A stretch of DNA of 17,733 nt, taken from the UHGV virus genome UHGV-0089955, one strand, 5' to 3'. Positions 334 through 6,419 of this stretch are shown here, piece by piece. The notes under the pieces were generated by a model that was not told the origin of the DNA, made no database searches, and saw nothing but the letters and a program-made list of their open reading frames with translations. The translations under genes and the position numbers were made by a program. The stretch's first letter is position 1, and each line of letters begins with the position of its first letter. Origin of the DNA: a virus.

Positions 334-2322
334 TTATGATGATGCCCGGCTTTCGTTAACTTTGACTGTGACCGTATCAAGCAGTACCGGATACGTCGCT
401 TTTGCCCCCGTGATATCTGTCAGCGTCAGCGTATCTGCTGTAAAGCCATCATTTGTCCACATCACAAGGTCAAACGCCGTCTGCTCTGTACCATCAATCA
501 CCGGAACGACTCTTTCGCTGTTATTTCCCGCAAAGCGGAAAACAACCGTATGCCAGTTATGGTCAAACGCACCAAATGTACCCAGTTGTGCATTCGACGT
601 GCCCTTGTGGTGCATAAGATTCAGATTTGATGCATCCGTCTGAAGGAAGAATGATGCCAGCATACTGTTTGCTGCCGCGCCTGACGCCCACTGCGACACC
701 GGCCAGTAGAGACCAAAGACAAACTGTCCGTTCACCAGTTCGCTTCCATCCGGAATTTTGAACCGTACGGCAATTTCACCCCCCTTGCTGAGAAGATTTT
801 TTGCCTCCTCCACTGCAACAGTACAGAACATTTTCCAGGACGTCAGTTTACCGGGCTGTTTTTCCAGTCGCAGCGCTTTCCGTCCACCGTCATCAGTCAC
901 AGTGCCTTTGCCACCGGCAGCCCCCCACTGCTGCTCTGTCCATACACCATTTCCACTGTTCGCATCATATTCAGCCACCGTCCTGGTACTGCTCACGGCC
1001 TCATCATGACCAGTACCAGCAACACCGCCATCCTGCGGTTTCTCAACACCCGGTACCCCCGGACTGACATCATCACCGGGAGTTGTACCACCCGACTGCG
1101 GTGCGCTCTGCCCGGTAAGGAACGATAATGTCCGCCCGGCGTACTGCAAAATGGCACCTGCCAGGCGGTCTGAAACAATGCCTCTTCGCGCCCATGAACT
1201 GAAGTGCGTTTTACGATCGGCTGACGTCCAGTTACTGGCAGTGCGTGACGCAGCGCCATAGTATCCCGCCGGGATAATGTCCGGATCTTCTGACGGCTCG
1301 TTTGTCGGCACATTCACACCATGCTCATCCGTCATCAACGGCACAAAGTGAATATTCTGCGCAGCTTTGCCTTTATACCCACCGTAAACCGCCTCATACG
1401 GCGCTGCATACCTTTCCTTCCAGTAGTACGTGGTATCACCGCAAATCCACGGGACGCTGGCCGTTGTCCCGCCAGTACACTGCTCTGCCACATCTGCCAG
1501 TTCCGTACGGAACTGATTTACCATGGCAAGGAAAAGCGCATTGTGTTCTGCATGTCTCCCCGAACTGACATCTTTTTCTCCCTGCATCCAAATCACTGAT
1601 AACAGCACGTTCTTCGGATTTTTCTTCAGGGCCGCACGGGTTCTGCTGACCAGGTCACGATACAACGGTTTATCCACCCCCCACAGGGAAGAGCCCGCTG
1701 TCGCACCCGACGCCTCATTAAACGCGCCCTCTGCTCCCGCAGTAAATCCCGAATCGCCACGTCCACACGGGACAAGAAGGATCCCCGCACGGGCAGGCAT
1801 AAACGGCAGCAGTTTTTTGGCCACATGCAGGGCATTCCCCACACAGCCATACTGCCCTTTATTGAGGTCTGCTTTCGGGTGATTCAGATTACTCACGTCC
1901 TGCACATCATGCAGACAATGGTCTGCAGGAATAATGTCGTTATATGCACAGGCCGCACCGCCCGGTGTCACCGTGCTGCGACGCGCCAGTTGCTTAATAC
2001 GCGGGTCAGGACGATCATACGTATCCGGCAGCGGCAGCCCCTCGCCAAAAGACATCGAGTTGGACTGCCCGGCCAGCGCAATGACAAAGTAATATTCCGG
2101 TTCGCTGGTGGTGCTGATAACAGCGCCACCATCACCCGACGGTTGCACCACCACCGGTGTGGTGACATCACCTTCCGCCGCAATGGCCTGCATCAGGGTA
2201 TAGGGCGTGATGGCCACCGGACTGCCAAATGGCTGCCACCCCTCCTTCAGTTTTTGAGTCAGTCGCTCCGCAAGGTCTGACGGCGACGCCGCCCTGACCA
2301 CGTCATAGTGTTTAAATGCCAT
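334..2322 (-). CDS. nanS-p: prophage-type sialate O-acetylesterase (NanS-p-like SGNH/SASA-family hydrolase), 662 aa
   Basis: GQSNS block (AGQSNSMSFGEG) typical of SASA/SGNH esterases, read from the translation; long Gly/Thr-rich linker and C-terminal domain; GGAGG 5 nt upstream of the ATG; position downstream of the phage tRNA array as in Stx-type phages. Family assignment is from remembered motifs, not a search. Confidence 0.75.
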   Translation of the reverse strand: MAFKHYDVVRAASPSDLAERLTQKLKEGWQPFGSPVAITPYTLMQAIAAEGDVTTPVVVQPSGDGGAVISTTSEPEYYFVIALAGQSNSMSFGEGLPLPDTYDRPDPRIKQLARRSTVTPGGAACAYNDIIPADHCLHDVQDVSNLNHPKADLNKGQYGCVGNALHVAKKLLPFMPARAGILLVPCGRGDSGFTAGAEGAFNEASGATAGSSLWGVDKPLYRDLVSRTRAALKKNPKNVLLSVIWMQGEKDVSSGRHAEHNALFLAMVNQFRTELADVAEQCTGGTTASVPWICGDTTYYWKERYAAPYEAVYGGYKGKAAQNIHFVPLMTDEHGVNVPTNEPSEDPDIIPAGYYGAASRTASNWTSADRKTHFSSWARRGIVSDRLAGAILQYAGRTLSFLTGQSAPQSGGTTPGDDVSPGVPGVEKPQDGGVAGTGHDEAVSSTRTVAEYDANSGNGVWTEQQWGAAGGKGTVTDDGGRKALRLEKQPGKLTSWKMFCTVAVEEAKNLLSKGGEIAVRFKIPDGSELVNGQFVFGLYWPVSQWASGAAANSMLASFFLQTDASNLNLMHHKGTSNAQLGTFGAFDHNWHTVVFRFAGNNSERVVPVIDGTEQTAFDLVMWTNDGFTADTLTLTDITGAKATYPVLLDTVTVKVNESRASS

Positions 2323-2515
2323 GAATCCTCCCGGTCGGGATAATGTTGTGAGTCAGATGAGGGAACGGGCTGAAGTCCGGAAGTTACAGGACAATGGCAG
2401 GAGGAAGACTACAGCCCGCAATACGAAAAAGGCCGCGCAGTTGCGCAGAGTGATTACTATGGGGTATTATTCGCCAGCTGAAATATTACTTCACGTTTTA
2501 TTGTTTATTCCTTGC

Positions 2516-2543
2516 CGCCCGCGTCTCCCAGCGCGGGCTTTTT
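2516..2543 (+). terminator. intrinsic terminator (GCCCGCG / CGCGGGC hairpin + T6)
   Basis: 7-bp GC stem 2516-2522 / 2531-2537 with 8-nt loop, followed by TTTTTT. Confidence 0.5.
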
Positions 2544-2599
2544 TGTCCATAAGAAAGCCCCTCCGGAGAGGGGCTGAAGCCGCATTTCTGTATCACCAT

Positions 2600-2810
2600 G
2601 AACATGGTGCCGGGTGCCTCCCGGTGAGTTCAGCCCGGTGCCACTGAACCCGCGATCTCTTCTGGGTCATCACGGATGATGAATTGTTGTCACCAGTCGC
2701 CCCACCGCACAGGGGGATTCACCATGCAATACTTTTTTAACAAAAAAGATAAAACGAAATCAACACTCAACTCACTGAAATGTGAAGAATTTAACATTTT
2801 CACATAAGAA
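2600..2810. repeat. copy A of a duplicated ~200-bp structured module (hairpin CCGGGTGCCTCCCGG, block CCAGTCGCCCCACCGC, SD-like AGGGGGATTCACC-ATG, 27-codon micro-ORF 2724-2807)
   Basis: Direct by-eye alignment with copy B at 3015-3220; shared blocks at 2610-2624 vs 3026-3040 and 2693-2726 vs 3097-3130. Confidence 0.6.
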
Positions 2811-2925
2811 CGTATGTTCCTTGTCACATCCCCGATCAGAACACAAATCAGCCTGTTGAAAACAACAATAACCTCAGGGTACTATTTTCAGGCAAATAAT
2901 AAAAAATGTATTCTCATGCATACTT

Positions 2926-2952
2926 GCCCGCTGCCATAGACGGGCTTTTTTT
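2926..2952 (+). terminator. intrinsic terminator (GCCCG / CGGGC hairpin + T7)
   Basis: Stem 2926-2930 / 2941-2945, 10-nt loop, then TTTTTTT. Confidence 0.5.
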
Positions 2953-2956
2953 ACTC

Positions 2957-2988
2957 AAAAAAAAGCCTCTACTAAAATTCGTAGAGGC
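2957..2988 (-). terminator. intrinsic terminator on minus strand (GCCTCTAC / GTAGAGGC hairpin + U8)
   Basis: 8-bp stem 2965-2972 / 2981-2988 with 8-nt loop; A8 at 2957-2964 on the + strand gives U8 after the hairpin on the minus strand; convergent with the + strand terminator at 2926-2952. Confidence 0.6.
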
Positions 2989-3014
2989 CTGAATACATTT
3001 CCAATTTTCCACAT

Positions 3015-3220
3015 TATGCATGATGCCGGGTGCCTCCCGGTAGATTCAGCCTGGCAAACTAAATCTGCGGATTGTGACCATCGTAATGGAGCCTTGCCAG
3101 TCGCCCCACCGCTTAGGGGGATTCATCATGCGGAGTGATTTTTAACAAATTCCCCACCAGAAAAACAATAATCACCTTCCTGAATTGTGAGGTATTTAAA
3201 AATTTCACCAGATAACTGAT
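3015..3220. repeat. copy B of the duplicated structured module (micro-ORF homologue 3135-3215, GTG start, frame change relative to copy A)
   Basis: Same hairpin and conserved blocks as copy A; the translated frame NKFPTRKTIITFLNCEVFKNFTR parallels copy A NKKDKTKSTLNSLKCEEFNIFT. Confidence 0.6.
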
Positions 3221-3254
3221 ACCCGACTAACCATCTGATGTTTTCTTTTTCAGC

Positions 3255-3281
3255 AAATTAAAAGGCCCGCCGAAGCGAGCC
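3255..3281 (-). terminator. intrinsic terminator downstream of the tRNA array (UUCG tetraloop hairpin + U-rich tail)
   Basis: Minus-strand reading GGCTCGC-UUCG-GCGGGCC followed by UUUUAAUUU; 7-bp stem with one G-U pair. Confidence 0.55.
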
Positions 3282-3294
3282 AGGAAAATAAGTG

Positions 3295-3371
3295 TGGCGC
3301 GTTGTACTGGATTCGAACCAGTGACCGATTACTTAGAAGGCAATTGCTCTGTCCGGCTGAGCTAACAACGC
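3295..3371 (-). tRNA. argO: tRNA-Arg, anticodon UCU (reads AGA), 77 nt, CCA encoded
   Basis: Hand-folded cloverleaf: acceptor GCGTTGT/ACAACGC, D-arm GCTC..GAGC, anticodon loop CUUCUAA, T-arm ACTGG-TTCGAAT-CCAGT, 3' GCCA. Third gene of an ileZ-argN-argO-type phage array. Confidence 0.85.
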
Positions 3372-3384
3372 AGAATACCGATAA

Positions 3385-3461
3385 TGGACCGCCATCGAGG
3401 ACTCGAACCCCGCGCAACCAGCTTCGAAGGCTGGCGCTCTATCCTGATGAGCTAATGGCGG
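3385..3461 (-). tRNA. argN: tRNA-Arg, anticodon UCG (reads CGA), 77 nt, CCA encoded
   Basis: Hand-folded cloverleaf: perfect 7-bp acceptor CCGCCAT/ATGGCGG, D-arm GCTC..GAGC, anticodon stem CCAGC/GCTGG with loop CUUCGAA, T-arm CGGGG-TTCGAGT-CCTCG. Confidence 0.8.
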
Positions 3462-3468
3462 TATGTGA

Positions 3469-3545
3469 TGGTGGCCCTTGCTGGATTTGAACCAGCGACC
3501 TGGCGATTATAACTCGCTCTCATCATTTAGCTAAAATGGCTGGGG
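3469..3545 (-). tRNA. ileZ: tRNA-Ile-like gene in the ileZ position; non-canonical, possibly a pseudo-tRNA (anticodon region TTATAA, candidate anticodon UAU)
   Basis: 3' half is canonical (T-arm GCTGG-TTCAAAT-CCAGC, acceptor 3' strand AAGGGCC, discriminator A, CCA). The 5' acceptor strand has two mismatches, and relative to the E. coli tRNA-Ile2 layout as I remember it about 4 nt of the anticodon-stem 5' strand are missing, so I could not fold a full cloverleaf. 5' boundary uncertain. Confidence 0.45.
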
Positions 3546-3665: not shown

Positions 3666-4610
3666 ATGATTTTTCTCAAGAATGGCGAAAGTTTTATTCG
3701 CGTGAATGACTGGGCAGAAATTCAGGCGAGAGAGTCTTACTATCCCAAATTAGAGTTAAATGATCAGCAACTCTCTGACGTTTTTGGTTACTACGATGAC
3801 CTACCAGAGGAAATTCCATGTGGAAAATCAAATTGCCGCAAAGGGCATAAAAAGGGATTTCTGGTAGTTACGAAAGAAGGATTTGAAACGAATATCGGCC
3901 ATGTATGTGGAACTAATGTTTTTGGTATAGCATTTGATAATTTAGCAATAGAACTTTGCCGAAAAGCAGATTTCCATCGCTTACTTACCGCACTTAAAGA
4001 GGCAAAAGATGATATTTTTAGCTATTACAAACTCAAAGCCAAAATCGAATCTGGGCGTCCATCACTAACTGAGGTTGCTCATAGAATACTTGACATGAAA
4101 GACCCTAAAATCATCGGGCGTGCGGCTTATCAAACATTGAAAAAGATGGCTGCTTCTGGTGATGGGCGTGTTTTCCGCTCAAGATTAAAAAATACAGAAG
4201 AGCTAGAACTGGACGAAATTATGTCCCAGAAGCAAACAAGCGACTCAGCTCCAAAAGTTAACAACAAAAACAAAACCGTAAATGAACTTATTGGGGTAAT
4301 ACAATACCCTGAATGCTTGCTGAATGATTATGACATTGCTCTTCTTTATGAAAGAGATATAAAAATGGTTCTGGAAAAATTAAACAAATGTACCCCAGAT
4401 GAATTGACTGAAAGAGAGGTGTTGTCTTTTGGAATAAAGGTTTCAAGATTAAGAGAACGCTTTAACTTTGCTCAGGAACGCTTAGAAAAATCCAGGGTTT
4501 TTGCAACAAGAGAAAACCTTAAACCTTTACGTGCATTACTTAACATTCAGAAATCTGTAAGCAATAAAGACAAATTACTATTTAAGAAATTTATGGAAAA
4601 TTTACCATAA
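3666..4610 (+). CDS. hypothetical protein, 314 aa, AT-rich orphan (moron) gene; possible small Zn-binding module near the N-terminus
   Basis: Long ORF with SD (AAGGA) 7 nt upstream of ATG 3666; followed at 4618-4635 by a GC hairpin; composition visibly more AT-rich than neighbours; convergent with Q. No recognisable catalytic motif. Confidence 0.7.
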   Translation: MIFLKNGESFIRVNDWAEIQARESYYPKLELNDQQLSDVFGYYDDLPEEIPCGKSNCRKGHKKGFLVVTKEGFETNIGHVCGTNVFGIAFDNLAIELCRKADFHRLLTALKEAKDDIFSYYKLKAKIESGRPSLTEVAHRILDMKDPKIIGRAAYQTLKKMAASGDGRVFRSRLKNTEELELDEIMSQKQTSDSAPKVNNKNKTVNELIGVIQYPECLLNDYDIALLYERDIKMVLEKLNKCTPDELTEREVLSFGIKVSRLRERFNFAQERLEKSRVFATRENLKPLRALLNIQKSVSNKDKLLFKKFMENLP

Positions 4611-4746: not shown

Positions 4747-5562
4747 TCAGTAACTCGTTGCCTTCTCAAATTCTCTAGCCGCATGCCGCTCACCTTGATG
4801 CAGGATATCAATCAATTTTTCATAGAATGGTTTCCAATTGCGCGACCATGAAGACTGGTGCAGATCGGGAATGTATATTTGAATAGCTCGATGAACATTA
4901 GCTGATTTGATAGATACGAATCCCTTTCCACTACAACGCTCGCAGATTTTAAACACTGGCACACCACGCTCGCTTGTGGCTTTGCGGTCCAGTACCTCTC
5001 CCTTTCCACCACAACGACACCTGGCACTTATCACTCCCTTCCCTTTACATACATCGCAAACGACTGGTACAACTTCCGTTACCTCTGTCCATCTTTCCCA
5101 GTCTGACGGTCGAACAGCACGGGAGCGACTGGCCCAATATGGTGCTTTACCCCATGGGTATGAAACCTTACGAATGACCTGCTTACGGGGTGTTAGTCCG
5201 GTACCACTGCAACTATGGCATGTTACGCTGGTGGCCGCCGATCGGGAATACTCAGCAAAAGCAAACTGAGCCAGTACCAGCATACACCAGCCAAATTCAC
5301 CACCAGCTGCTTTACGCACATTCTTCGGTGCAATTTCCATCGCGTGACGCGCCAGCGCCTGGACTGCCATCTGCTCATCAGTCTTGCTGATACCGGCCTT
5401 CCCGAAGAAGGCCGCCAGGCCAAACCGCTCACGATTACTGGTGGTACCAATAGCCGCCATAACATCGGTGCCTGTAAGACGTTCCGGAGAGGTTCCTTTC
5501 ACATCGTCGCCGATATACATTCCCTGAGGACTGAAGTATTTTAGCGATGCCTCAAGCTTCAT
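4747..5562 (-). CDS. late-gene antiterminator Q-like protein (271 aa) with repeated CxxCxGxG zinc-finger motifs
   Basis: Four Cys pairs (CHSCSGTG, CDVCKGKG, CRCGGKG, CERCSGKG) resembling DnaJ-type zinc fingers; last gene of the replication/nin block and immediately upstream of the PR'-like promoter and tRNA array; start overlaps the upstream stop (TAATG). Confidence 0.6.
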   Translation of the reverse strand: MKLEASLKYFSPQGMYIGDDVKGTSPERLTGTDVMAAIGTTSNRERFGLAAFFGKAGISKTDEQMAVQALARHAMEIAPKNVRKAAGGEFGWCMLVLAQFAFAEYSRSAATSVTCHSCSGTGLTPRKQVIRKVSYPWGKAPYWASRSRAVRPSDWERWTEVTEVVPVVCDVCKGKGVISARCRCGGKGEVLDRKATSERGVPVFKICERCSGKGFVSIKSANVHRAIQIYIPDLHQSSWSRNWKPFYEKLIDILHQGERHAAREFEKATSY

Positions 5563-6419
5563 TATTCACACTCCCCAACCAGATTGAGAATGACCGCTGC
5601 ACCGTCGTCTTCCATGCATTCACCCTTACCACTTGCCAGAAACCAGCGGCACACCTCCACGGCTTCAGCGCGTGTCACCGGTTTGATGGTTGCCAGCAAT
5701 TTTTCAAGGTAGCGCTCGCGGTCATATACCGATTCGTGATGCTCAGAGTAACCAAACTCATCGCCCTGTTCTTTAGTTGCAGTGTGGCGAACACTGTAGA
5801 GCCAGTCCCAGTAAACGAACTCGCGAACAACATCAGACAGCGTATAAGGCTCAGGCAGCACATCGCGATATCCATCAACAAATGCCCGACGCTGTTCATC
5901 AATTTCGTTCATGCGGCTGCCGCCAATGCTTCCGGCTTTTTTCTCTGCCGCAGTCCAGCCCCAGAGATGATCGTTGATAAATTTCTGGGAAGACCTGATG
6001 ACCCGCTCTGCTTCCACATCTTCGAGCGCTGCTTCATAGCTACCAAACGTAGCCCTGACTGATGCCGCTTTTTTGATGTTCTCCCGGGCGTTCCTGATAA
6101 CCTGCGCAGGGTTATCCATGCCGATGATGCCGAACGCAACCTGGAAAGGTTCGTAACCATTCGCCAGCAGATAACGCGAATAGCGTTCCTGAGCCTCTTT
6201 TGGGGAAATTTTAATTTTCACCAGCGCAGCCTCAGCAGCATCCAGATGTGCGGGTTCGTTCAGACGGATAACCTCCAGCACCCAAAGATAAGCATCAGTC
6301 TGCTTATGCCCGGTGATTCTCCGTTGCTCTGGCAGGGGCTTGATGTTTGCGAGGGCGGAGCTGTACGCTGCCGTCGGGATGGTGAATAGTGCTTTATGTT
6401 CGTTATTATCAGTACGCAT
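5562..6419 (-). CDS. hypothetical protein, 285 aa, translationally coupled between primase and Q (nin-region position)
   Basis: ORF with TAATG stop-start overlaps at both ends (6419 and 5562); no motif recognised. Confidence 0.65.
   Translation of the reverse strand: MRTDNNEHKALFTIPTAAYSSALANIKPLPEQRRITGHKQTDAYLWVLEVIRLNEPAHLDAAEAALVKIKISPKEAQERYSRYLLANGYEPFQVAFGIIGMDNPAQVIRNARENIKKAASVRATFGSYEAALEDVEAERVIRSSQKFINDHLWGWTAAEKKAGSIGGSRMNEIDEQRRAFVDGYRDVLPEPYTLSDVVREFVYWDWLYSVRHTATKEQGDEFGYSEHHESVYDRERYLEKLLATIKPVTRAEAVEVCRWFLASGKGECMEDDGAAVILNLVGECE

Follow-up and report, generated by a model that had tools for sequence, protein, structure and literature searches.

Features of the tRNA-esterase interval

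The window analysed here, i.e., the whole stretch of 17,733 nucleotides, belongs to an E. coli lambdoid prophage in which the interval between the tRNA array and the esterase gene spans 972 bp. On its upstream side, this slot is bounded by a tRNA array located by ARAGORN (positions 3295-3540, minus strand), which consists of tRNA-Arg(tct) (3295-3371), tRNA-Arg(tcg) (3385-3461), and a degenerate ileZ-like tRNA (3472-3540), scoring 66.7, 56, and only 32.6 bits with the Rfam tRNA model, respectively. The order of the array is matched in 933W and in Sakai prophages. On the downstream side lies a nanS-p-type esterase gene (334-2322, minus strand) with the Pfam domains DUF1737, SASA (PF03629), and DUF6645; its homologues bear the annotation SASA family carbohydrate esterase. 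The minus strand carries the Q gene (4747-5562) as well as the tRNAs and the esterase gene; it is also the strand of late transcription and of the two long RNA genes described below.

An earlier note on this DNA had placed stx between the tRNA array and the esterase gene in Stx-converting phages and had reported no supported long ORF between tRNA-Arg and the esterase ORF in the window. Our analysis agrees on both points: stx has this position in 933W and Stx2_95, and the sole ORF of at least 60 aa in the slot (2321-2647, plus strand, 108 aa) overlaps the RNA genes. This ORF was rejected as a gene; its only match was a 40-aa PHROG of unknown function, and it matched no PADLOC family. The PHROG probably represents over-annotated ORFs on the same conserved DNA.

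Terminator scanning identified a minus-strand terminator-like hairpin near each edge of the slot, both unnoticed earlier. One lies just after the tRNA array (3256-3281, hairpin 3281-3264; GGCTCGCTTCGGCGGGCC followed by TTTTAATTTG); in 933W, a terminator is annotated upstream of stx in the corresponding place. The other (2427-2448, hairpin 2448-2433; CTGCGCAACTGCGCGG followed by CCTTTTTCGT) marks the boundary between the RNA genes and the esterase gene, and this element is also found in 933W, upstream of its esterase gene.

Long minus-strand genes of the STnc100 family

The Rfam covariance search that the earlier note had proposed returned two full-length matches (model positions 1-206) to the STnc100 family (RF02076) on the minus strand: copy A (2545-2757; 147.2 bits, E = 3e-33), on the side of the esterase gene, and copy B (2953-3161; 122.1 bits, E = 9e-27), on the side of the tRNAs. 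Both are far above the curated gathering score of the family (47 bits). Weak Rfam matches to OmrA-B, Spot 42, U7, anti-hemB, and YrlA scored far under their gathering thresholds and resemble noise driven by terminators. Two paralogous modules had been described here before; the copies are real, but they had been read on the wrong strand and with extents that were off, the modules reaching from approximately 2441 to 2810 (A) and from approximately 2856 to 3210 (B). Aligned over 379 columns, A and B have a mean column identity of 78%, with shared blocks of 86% identity (2603-2638/3019-3054) and 91% identity (2693-2727/3097-3131). As the Rfam E-values indicate, the repeat is far beyond chance.

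Furthermore, the structure is conserved. RNAalifold analysis of 13 STnc100 copies yielded 36 base pairs, nine of them with compensatory double changes, and the main stems are almost unbroken; the stem differences between A and B are likewise compensatory rather than disruptive. In the same alignment, a hypervariable insert (columns 62-108) sits between invariant scaffolds. Full-length matches and covarying structure bear out the earlier view that the segment is not random spacer. Each gene includes its own terminator according to the terminator scan, at 2575-2556 in copy A (unnoticed earlier) and at 2990-2963 in copy B.

Putative promoter/TSS regions lie immediately upstream of both genes, at 2758-2810 for copy A (block TGTGAAAATGTTAAATTCTTCACATTTCAG, with a probable transcription start site (TSS) near 2780-2798) and at 3162-3210 for copy B (block GTGAAATTTTTAAATACCTCACAATTCAGG, with a probable TSS near 3190-3200). 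The block is kept in 12 of the 13 aligned STnc100 upstream regions. Promoter scanning of the STnc100 copies returned no canonical sigma-70 promoter, only the conserved TGTTAAAT...CTCACAATTCAG block, and the aligned upstream regions have no good -35 element. Because Northern analysis sizes EcOnc27 at approximately 235/247 nt and the Rfam model covers 206 nt, the 5' end probably lies 29-41 nt upstream of the model start. EcOnc27 has Hfq-CRAC support as well, and STnc100_4 is supported by Northern blot in EDL933.

Comparison with stx-flanking regions, which had also been suggested, showed that the copy A long RNA is 88.7% identical to the Stx2_95 copy 3' of stx2B and approximately 80% identical to that of 933W. 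The module lies 3' rather than 5' of stx in Stx phages, which argues against the earlier idea of leader elements of lost cargo.

Predicted short plus-strand genes and the dyad arrangement

The earlier note had described back-to-back terminators separating the two copies. The hairpins were recovered (plus strand, 2926-2952, by folding; minus strand, 2990-2963, by terminator scan), as was a further plus-strand terminator reported at 2516-2543 (2517-2538 plus a T-run in our scan), but they do not separate the copies. The plus-strand terminators belong to two additional short sRNA genes that converge on the long genes, and at each plus/minus terminator pair the 3' ends of two convergent genes meet. 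The terminators appear back to back because opposite each STnc100 gene lies a short sRNA gene on the plus strand, and the terminators of the two adjoin.

Convergent pairs of Hfq-binding sRNAs ("dyads") occur at a moron site 3' of pR' in at least eight Sakai prophages (PMC4104026, PMC7873438). The pointer to EHEC prophage sRNAs in the earlier note was apt, as the EcOnc27/AsxR-type dyads of EHEC lambdoid prophages match the window. EcOnc27 (sRNA103, STnc100)/AsxR (EcOnc02) of Sp5 and 933W lies 3' of stx2B in the same position relative to the esterase gene, and it likewise has a long sense sRNA converging on a short opposite-strand sRNA with abutting terminators; in 933W, Rfam places STnc100 at 3778-3983 (+) and AsxR at 3985-4037 (-), convergent and abutting. 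In contrast, the window has no stx upstream and carries two dyads in tandem.

In dyad A, which adjoins the esterase gene, the short RNA gene (2441-2545, plus strand) was assigned to the EcOnc08/EcOnc21/EcOnc42 type by sequence identity to Sakai Sp4 and EPEC loci. It has a putative promoter (2441-2470; TTGCGC, 18-nt spacer, TATTAT) that aligns with the AsxR promoter, a candidate transcript of approximately 70 nt (approximately 2476-2545), and the intact terminator at 2517-2538. The transcript may be longer, because Sakai EcOnc08 runs at approximately 271 nt in Northern analysis. The gene is 94.6% identical over 111 nt to Sakai Sp4 (L008, 1931-2041, minus strand), where the matching segment spans the EcOnc08 Hfq-CRAC peak at 1179938-1180010, and 91.7% identical over 229 nt to the E2348/69 PP6 region, which encodes the RIL-seq sRNA candidate E2348C_1409.E2348C_1408.IGR. 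The EcOnc08/21/42 family is supported by Hfq-CRAC and Northern analysis, and RIL-seq recovered its EPEC homologue together with a target motif. On our own anti-sRNA model (see below), the dyad A short RNA scored only 8 bits.

The short RNA of dyad B, adjoining the tRNAs, is a 60-nt candidate for a divergent AsxR/AgvB-class anti-sRNA (2893-2952, plus strand; CAAAUAAUAAAAAAUGUAUUCUCAUGCAUACUUGCCCGCUGCCAUAGACGGGCUUUUUUU). Promoter scanning identified a sigma-70-like promoter, unnoticed earlier, at 2856-2885 (TTGAAA, 18-nt spacer, TACTAT), and the TSS predicted 7-9 nt past it falls at about 2893, where the covariance-model alignments begin. In the predicted fold, a single-stranded 5' end precedes a small hairpin, and the RNA closes with a terminator (2926-2952), a hairpin followed by U7. 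A class model built only from AsxR, AgvB, and EcOnc03 variants, leaving this RNA out, matched it over its full length with 22.2 bits (a rough E of approximately 0.0025), the best match of the model in the window. Among 4,227 Rfam families, AsxR and AgvB were the top two on 2893-2952, both full-length from 2893, with scores below their gathering thresholds (AsxR RF02703, 20.7 against 63 bits; AgvB RF02702, 15.9 against 56 bits). With its predicted TSS, the RNA has the features of the class, namely a length of 51-60 nt, a variable ARN-containing 5' region of 14-18 nt, and a Rho-independent terminator. It ends at 2952 and the copy B STnc100 gene at 2953, convergent and abutting in the same geometry as AsxR in 933W.

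Compared with the class 3' region of approximately 42 nt, the RNA shares with AsxR the core GUAU(U)CUCAUGC..UUGCCCG, whereas the spacer and the terminator loop differ. Its 5' end, CAAAUAAUAAAAAAU, reads AAU-AAU-AAA-AAA (ARN repeats), is unpaired in the MFE fold, and contrasts with CGAUUAUUAAAACGA of AsxR. AgvB (EcOnc01)/EcOnc06 and EcOnc03/EcOnc28 (Sakai Sp10, Sp17, and Sp9) provide further likeness, with anti-sRNAs of 51-60 nt that combine a conserved 3' part with a variable, ARN-containing 5' part and converge on an STnc100 match; Rfam likewise finds STnc100 with AgvB-family matches in this arrangement in Sakai Sp9 and Sp10. Unlike the dyad B short RNA, however, AgvB contains the GcvB-target mimic CACAACA and paired with GcvB in our control. 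RNAduplex gave no sign that the dyad B short RNA sponges FnrS or GcvB, its energies being no better than those of shuffled controls (fractions of 0.19 and 0.54, respectively), and it shows no AsxR-like pairing to the FnrS terminator. The positive control AgvB-GcvB reached -19.9 kcal/mol (fraction 0.027), though the test is crude, AsxR-FnrS itself not being significant despite mapping to the FnrS terminator region. Among trans pairings of the four window RNAs, only that between the two short RNAs was marginal: AAAUAAUAAAA of dyad B can form 11 consecutive base pairs with UUUUAUUGUUU of dyad A, an energy reached by 4% of shuffles, and because five tests were made it is not significant after correction.

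The toxin-free slot of Sakai Sp4 (ileZ-argN-argO, dyad, esterase gene ECs_1088, no cargo gene) has a layout identical to that of the window, and its dyad is EcOnc05 (an STnc100 match)/EcOnc08-EcOnc21. The stretch 2323-2550 is 92% identical between the two. Sp4, by contrast, has one dyad in 490 bp against two in 972 bp here. As the copy A long RNA is only approximately 70% identical to EcOnc05, the two halves of dyad A are of different ancestry. PasD1/PasD2 of EPEC E2348/69 (EcOnc13 homologues, 172-173 nt) are proposed STnc100 relatives. Identity with PasD was rejected, since the only BLAST match was 36 nt at 83% to the 172-nt PasD2 and the window copies are STnc100 proper; PasA was rejected as well, its 20-mer being unmatched at up to three mismatches and the window segments giving no BLAST match to PasA of E2348/69 PP2.

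The exact tandem pair occurs in 6 of 5,426 complete E. coli genomes, an STEC isolate and NCTC9112 among them, and the segment is 93-99% conserved in these six unrelated isolates and one viral contig; carrier strains include NCTC9112, STEC17-183, and DETEC-S792. Tandem dyad arrays exist elsewhere too. A scan of viral contigs with a 14-base degenerate core gave mostly chance matches; counting all loci examined, an STnc100 core lay downstream in only 28 of 125 matches, 23 of the 28 in viral contigs. As a form of a known prophage module, the tandem pair is ordinary, if rare. Homology to Stx2a phages stops inside copy A, in its 5' end (query 1-422; positions 57-256 only). The analysis shows that dyad halves recombine independently within conserved STnc100 blocks.

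Alternative readings and proposed function

The earlier note had left open whether the paired genes encode small RNAs or small proteins, citing conserved Lys-rich micro-ORFs in both copies. The strings exist (2725-2808 in copy A; a GTG-started frame, 3135-3215, in copy B), copy A has AGGGGG 7 nt before the ATG of a 27-codon frame, and several homologues retain a frame of 27-28 codons or longer with a recurring FNK...LNCE.F pattern. However, when we translated the antisense frame in 25 distinct homologous variants, start, frame, and length were not conserved. The ATG frame ran for 2, 5, 10, 17, 27, 28 or >33 codons (10 in 933W and other Stx2-phage copies, 2-5 in AgvB-dyad copies) and stopped after 5 codons in copy B, where the frame read earlier needs a GTG start in another frame and has no SD. 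The SD-like AGGGGGATTCAYCATG corresponds, on the opposite strand, to an invariant sRNA stem element, CAUGRUGAAUCCCCCU, and the "conserved peptide" is explained by the promoter/TSS block (...TTAAAT.CCTCACAATTCAG...) and the sRNA 5' end UUUGUUAAAAA; read antisense, the promoter/TSS region of copy A makes up most of the copy A micro-ORF. Since many homologues, and copy B as well, have a disrupted ORF, the small-protein reading fails, and we consider it highly improbable that the modules encode Lys-rich plus-strand proteins. The small-RNA half of the proposal stands, with STnc100-family genes of covarying structure.

Two other readings concern the role of the RNA genes. The slot could be debris, i.e., decayed DNA from the flanks of stx and scars of recombination in which a likeness to sRNA genes persists, as might be suspected from the mosaic segment with its Stx2a-phage homology ending inside copy A, from the degenerate ileZ-like tRNA next to it, and from E2348/69 PP6, where one STnc100 copy is split by ISEc13 and where decay has therefore occurred in this very slot. 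Yet both copies cover the full model with intact terminators and a conserved promoter block, differ in their stems by compensatory, not disruptive, changes, and are maintained at the conservation noted above across unrelated isolates, which makes debris quite improbable. Alternatively, the modules might act mainly in cis, as terminators, insulators or processing sites for read-through from the tRNAs into the esterase and lysis genes, or as homology anchors for the exchange of cargo such as stx, any role in trans being secondary. Such a role would fit the presence of four terminator-like hairpins on the minus strand from the tRNAs to the esterase gene, dyads positioned 3' of cargo genes (stx2AB; a terB-like gene), arrays with cargo remnants between the copies (L006 and L004), and the Stx2-phage homology breakpoint inside the conserved STnc100 5' block. 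On the other hand, family members are discrete Hfq-bound RNAs with trans partners according to CRAC and RIL-seq, trans targets have been demonstrated for AsxR and AgvB (PMC4104026), and a hypervariable insert in an invariant scaffold resembles a trans-acting seed; we regard a mainly cis role as unlikely.

The evidence from homology, from structure and its covariation, from the motifs of promoters and terminators, and from synteny indicates that the slot very probably holds two tandem prophage sRNA dyads, whose transcription, Hfq binding, and targets we infer. Each dyad would comprise an STnc100/EcOnc27-family sRNA of approximately 210-245 nt, with a promoter and an intrinsic terminator of its own and the same direction of transcription as the late operon, and a short sRNA gene on the opposite strand converging on it. 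Dyad A would combine a copy of STnc100 like that of Stx2 phages with an EcOnc08-type short RNA, and dyad B a rarer STnc100 variant with a 60-nt AsxR/AgvB-class anti-sRNA carrying a new A-rich 5' end. All four RNAs may be expressed in the lysogen as stand-alone, Hfq-dependent riboregulators that act in trans, the long ones through the hypervariable insert between their invariant stems and the short ones through single-stranded 5' regions that would pair with host mRNAs or sponge host sRNAs. Upon induction, Q-modified polymerase would continue past the minus-strand terminators and transcribe the esterase and lysis genes.

A more specific proposal is that the dyad B RNA is an uncatalogued anti-sRNA that uses its 5' end as seed to sponge a partner other than FnrS or GcvB, perhaps the EcOnc08-type sRNA of dyad A, and that STnc100/short-RNA pairs are swappable cassettes that stack into arrays at the 3' boundary of cargo and give homology for toxin gain and loss; as a whole, we hold this to be doubtful.

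The result is mostly clarifying: the slot in which Stx phages carry their toxin would here hold known prophage riboregulator modules rather than mini-proteins. The dyad B short RNA candidate would add a fifth 5'-end variant to the AsxR/AgvB class, one missed by Rfam thresholds, and breakpoints within STnc100 blocks bear on the movement of the stx cassette. Anti-sRNAs rewire the Hfq networks of the EHEC host, including haem uptake and amino-acid transport, and new seeds are therefore candidate new regulatory links between host and prophage.

The tRNA-to-esterase interval

The window carries the late region of the prophage on its minus strand, in the order antiterminator gene Q (4747-5562, PF03589), a tRNA array (3540-3295), the tRNA-to-esterase interval, a gene for a 662-aa esterase with DUF1737, SASA and DUF6645 domains (2322-334), and a DUF1378 gene (195-1). 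The description of the interval as a toxin slot in an earlier note is correct, because the stx2AB operon sits between the equivalent tRNA array and esterase gene in phages 933W and Stx2_95. Partial matches to the interval were found in 1,517 of 5,426 complete E. coli genomes, with full-length matches (93-99% identity) in only six.

The first tRNA of the array, which is ileZ-like (3472-3540, minus), is degenerate, with no ARAGORN call and an Rfam score of 32.6 bits, compared with 72.5 bits for the intact tRNA-Ile of relatives. Homology to the otherwise identical prophage of DETEC-S792 stops at this tRNA, and the upstream gene content is different. Between Q and the array, a 314-aa ORF on the opposite strand (3666-4610, plus) matched phrog_7003 (unknown function) over its full length (E 4e-118), while Pfam and PADLOC gave no match. 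In another prophage, L004, the equivalent position is occupied by a type I restriction endonuclease gene, which makes this ORF a candidate moron or defence gene. Furthermore, phrog_31368 (40 aa, unknown function) matches 2363-2452 (plus), namely residues 15-44 of a 108-aa plus-strand ORF (2321-2647) that overlaps the non-coding DNA preceding the esterase gene. The PHROG probably groups ORFs that were over-annotated on conserved regulatory sequence. The stretch from the DUF1378 gene to the stop codon of the esterase gene contains an sRNA-like unit (214-329, plus), with a promoter-like site (TTGACA, 17-nt spacer, TTAAAA; 214-242) and a predicted RNA of ~80 nt whose 3' end is a strong hairpin, CCGCCAGC...GCTGGCGG, plus U7 (292-327). 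It is like EPEC PasA/PasC in position and size, but a PasA 20-mer and BLAST gave no similarity. In the early region, the minus strand has genes for a Toprim/zinc-ribbon primase (6419-7387) and a ResIII/DEAD helicase (7389-9047), and the plus strand has genes for an S24-peptidase CI-like repressor (10139-10831) and a second HTH protein (10968-11387). A 285-aa protein (phrog_6204, unknown function) is also encoded there, within 5562-9047 (minus) or 10139-11387 (plus).

STnc100 long RNAs and convergent dyads

An Rfam scan of the window at gathering thresholds returned two full-length matches to STnc100 (RF02076) on the minus strand: copy A, nearer the esterase gene (2545-2757, 147.2 bits, E 3e-33), and copy B, nearer the tRNAs (2953-3161, 122.1 bits, E 9e-27). 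The long RNAs are members of this family, with covarying structure and terminators. The family corresponds to EcOnc27/sRNA103, an Hfq-binding RNA directly 3' of stx2B that runs at ~235/247 nt on Northern blots (PMC7873438); EDL933 has 11 copies, one Northern-verified, and EPEC PasD1 and PasD2 are proposed relatives. We aligned 13 copies from the window, 933W, Stx2_95, three other E. coli prophages, and Sakai Sp4, Sp9 and Sp10. Between invariant scaffolds, an insert (columns 62-108) was hypervariable in length and sequence, and it is completely different between copies A and B. An inverted repeat surrounds the conserved TTAAAT of both promoters (TGTGA-N14-TCACA in copy A, 2775-2800, minus; GGTGA-N14-TCACA in copy B, 3180-3205, minus). 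Similar GTGA...TCAC arms were seen in several homologues, though not clearly in 933W. The repeat could be a regulator site, with spacing that is wrong for CRP.

Convergent pairs of Hfq-binding sRNAs ("dyads") at the moron site 3' of pR' were described by Tree et al. 2014 and in a 2021 review, and are known in at least eight Sakai lambdoid prophages (PMC4104026, PMC7873438). In each dyad, the long RNA has the direction of late transcription and the short RNA comes from the opposite strand, as in EcOnc27/AsxR 3' of stx2B and EcOnc06/AgvB (PMC4104026, PMC7873438). Rfam recovered this geometry in 933W (STnc100 at 3778-3983, plus; AsxR at 3985-4037, minus) and in Sakai Sp9 and Sp10, and the window has it twice. 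The back-to-back terminators reported previously are explained by convergent dyads, as in those prophages.

Predicted short RNAs of the two dyads

In dyad A, on the esterase side, window 2440-2550 (plus) is 94.6% identical to Sakai Sp4 (locus L008, 1931-2041, minus), a segment spanning the EcOnc08 Hfq-CRAC peak. Sp4, like the window, has a toxin-free slot with the order tRNAs, dyad, esterase. The whole stretch 2323-2550 is 91.7% identical to E2348/69 PP6, whose RNA (...CACGUUUUGUUGUUUAUUCCUUGCCGCCCGCG...) is among the newly identified accessory-genome sRNAs of an EPEC RIL-seq study, in which its target motif is complementary to CUUGCG. Our comparisons show both the convergent geometry and the homology of the two short RNAs to Hfq-associated sRNAs that have been detected experimentally. 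In PP6 (L132), the STnc100 copy is split by an ISEc13 insertion (7008-7100 and 8690-8797), and RIL-seq detected its convergent partner, a short RNA of the EcOnc08 type that is still intact. A putative promoter (TTGCGC, 18-nt spacer, TATTAT; 2441-2470, plus) aligns with that of AsxR and, with a terminator at 2517-2538 (plus), predicts a short form of ~70 nt (2476-2545, plus). As EcOnc08/21 runs at ~271 nt on a Sakai Northern, a longer form may exist beside it, beginning opposite the 5' end of the esterase gene. A promoter-like site (ATGCCA, 17-nt spacer, GATAAT; 2316-2344, plus) overlaps the esterase start codon, and the equivalent of the Sakai EcOnc21 peak (~2380-2465, plus) falls between this site and the EcOnc08-like RNA. 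There may therefore be a longer plus-strand transcript, complementary to both the esterase 5' UTR and the terminator on the minus strand at 2433-2448.

The short RNA of dyad B, on the tRNA side, has a promoter-like site (TTGAAA, 18-nt spacer, TACTAT; 2856-2885, plus) and a predicted start at ~2893, giving a 60-nt RNA that ends in the hairpin 2926-2952 plus U7. In the predicted fold, the A-rich 5' end is single-stranded and is followed by a small hairpin and the terminator. From the 5' part through the conserved core (CAAAUAAUAAAAAAUGUAUUCUCAUGCAUACUUGCCCG...), it lines up with the published anti-sRNAs AsxR (CGAUUAUUAAAACGAGUAUCUCAUGCAAUUGCCCG...), AgvB (CGAUAACAACACAACAAUAUCAGUAUCUCAUGCUAUUGCCCG...) and EcOnc03 (CGAUAAAAAUGACAAUGCAAGUAUCUCAUGCUGUUGCCCG...). 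A covariance model built from six canonical anti-sRNA variants only had its best match in the whole window at 2893-2951 (full length, 22.2 bits, rough E 0.0025). When the 96-nt stretch was searched against all 4,227 Rfam families, AsxR (20.7 bits) and AgvB (15.9 bits) ranked first and second, with both alignments beginning at 2893. Because these scores lie far below the gathering scores, we filed the RNA as a putative divergent member of the anti-sRNA class outside both families. Its 5' end (AAU-AAU-AAA-AAA) is a motif of the ARN type that, for this class, was described in connection with the distal face of Hfq (PMC4104026). Predicted pairing with FnrS and GcvB was no better than with shuffles, and the AgvB-GcvB control was recovered. 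The 5' end AAAUAAUAAAA (2893-2907, plus) can pair with UUUUAUUGUUU of the dyad A short RNA (2496-2506, plus) over 11 consecutive pairs (-10.4 kcal/mol; equalled by 4% of shuffled seeds). As five pairs were tested, targeting of the neighbouring short RNA is a weak lead.

Alternative readings, ancestry and proposed function

The earlier note had proposed plus-strand structured modules with conserved Lys-rich micro-ORFs. Its observation was real and its suggestion of sRNA genes right, but the strand and the micro-ORFs were wrong. Each landmark is an invariant STnc100 element read from the opposite strand: CCGGGTGCCTCCCGG corresponds to the hairpin CCGGGAGGCACCCGG on the sRNA strand, CCAGTCGCCCCACCGC to the GGGGCGACUGG junction, and the supposed "SD" AGGGGGATTCAYCATG to CAUGRUGAAUCCCCCU, which forms the 5' arm of a long-range stem and a hairpin arm. 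In all loci compared, we translated from the ATG of the conserved antisense motif GGGGATTYAYCATG. Among 25 distinct variants, the frame had 2, 5, 10, 17, 27, 28 or >33 codons, with 10 in the copies of 933W and other Stx2 phages and 5 in copy B, for which the longer frame proposed was a switch to GTG in another frame. Two conserved non-coding blocks yield the recurring FNK...LNCE.F pattern when translated. One is the 5' end of the sRNA, UUUGUUAAAAA, and the other the promoter/TSS block TTAAAT.CCTCACAATTCAG, which is kept in 12 of 13 upstream alignments. With frame length inconstant and the peptide pattern traced to these blocks, we rejected the small-protein reading, and there is scarcely any chance that the modules encode such products. 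It is also very unlikely that the interval is non-functional debris. The RNAalifold consensus of the 13 copies has 36 pairs, nine with compensatory double changes, and its main stems are essentially never broken.

Dyad A is a mosaic, with a short RNA like that of Sp4, a long RNA body like that of Stx2_95 (88.7%), and a promoter and first ~20 nt of the long RNA that come from a third source. Homology breaks off within the conserved 5' block, and recombination within conserved STnc100 blocks would be the simplest explanation. Mainly cis-acting elements, with insulator or recombination-anchor roles, are improbable, although less so than debris. The tandem arrangement is not unique: in the equivalent slot, Rfam found STnc100 twice in strain SW070917 and three times in S19-651, and three further viral contigs have tandem copies, one of which (L128) carries the window's pair (exact-core count). 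The full dyad B was present in six of the 5,426 genomes and absent from all 50,697 phage records, and relatives of its STnc100 half (88-89% identity) exist without the matching short RNA. Judged by sequence, the copies do not derive from a recent duplication, as their sRNA bodies are only ~70% identical.

As trans-acting sRNAs, all four RNAs would be transcribed in the lysogen and bound by Hfq. The long RNAs would work through the hypervariable insert and the short RNAs through their single-stranded 5' regions, that of dyad B as a sponge; on induction, Q-modified polymerase would pass the minus-strand terminators. The system is of a known kind, with apparently one uncatalogued member of the anti-sRNA class, in a rare tandem combination of dyads.
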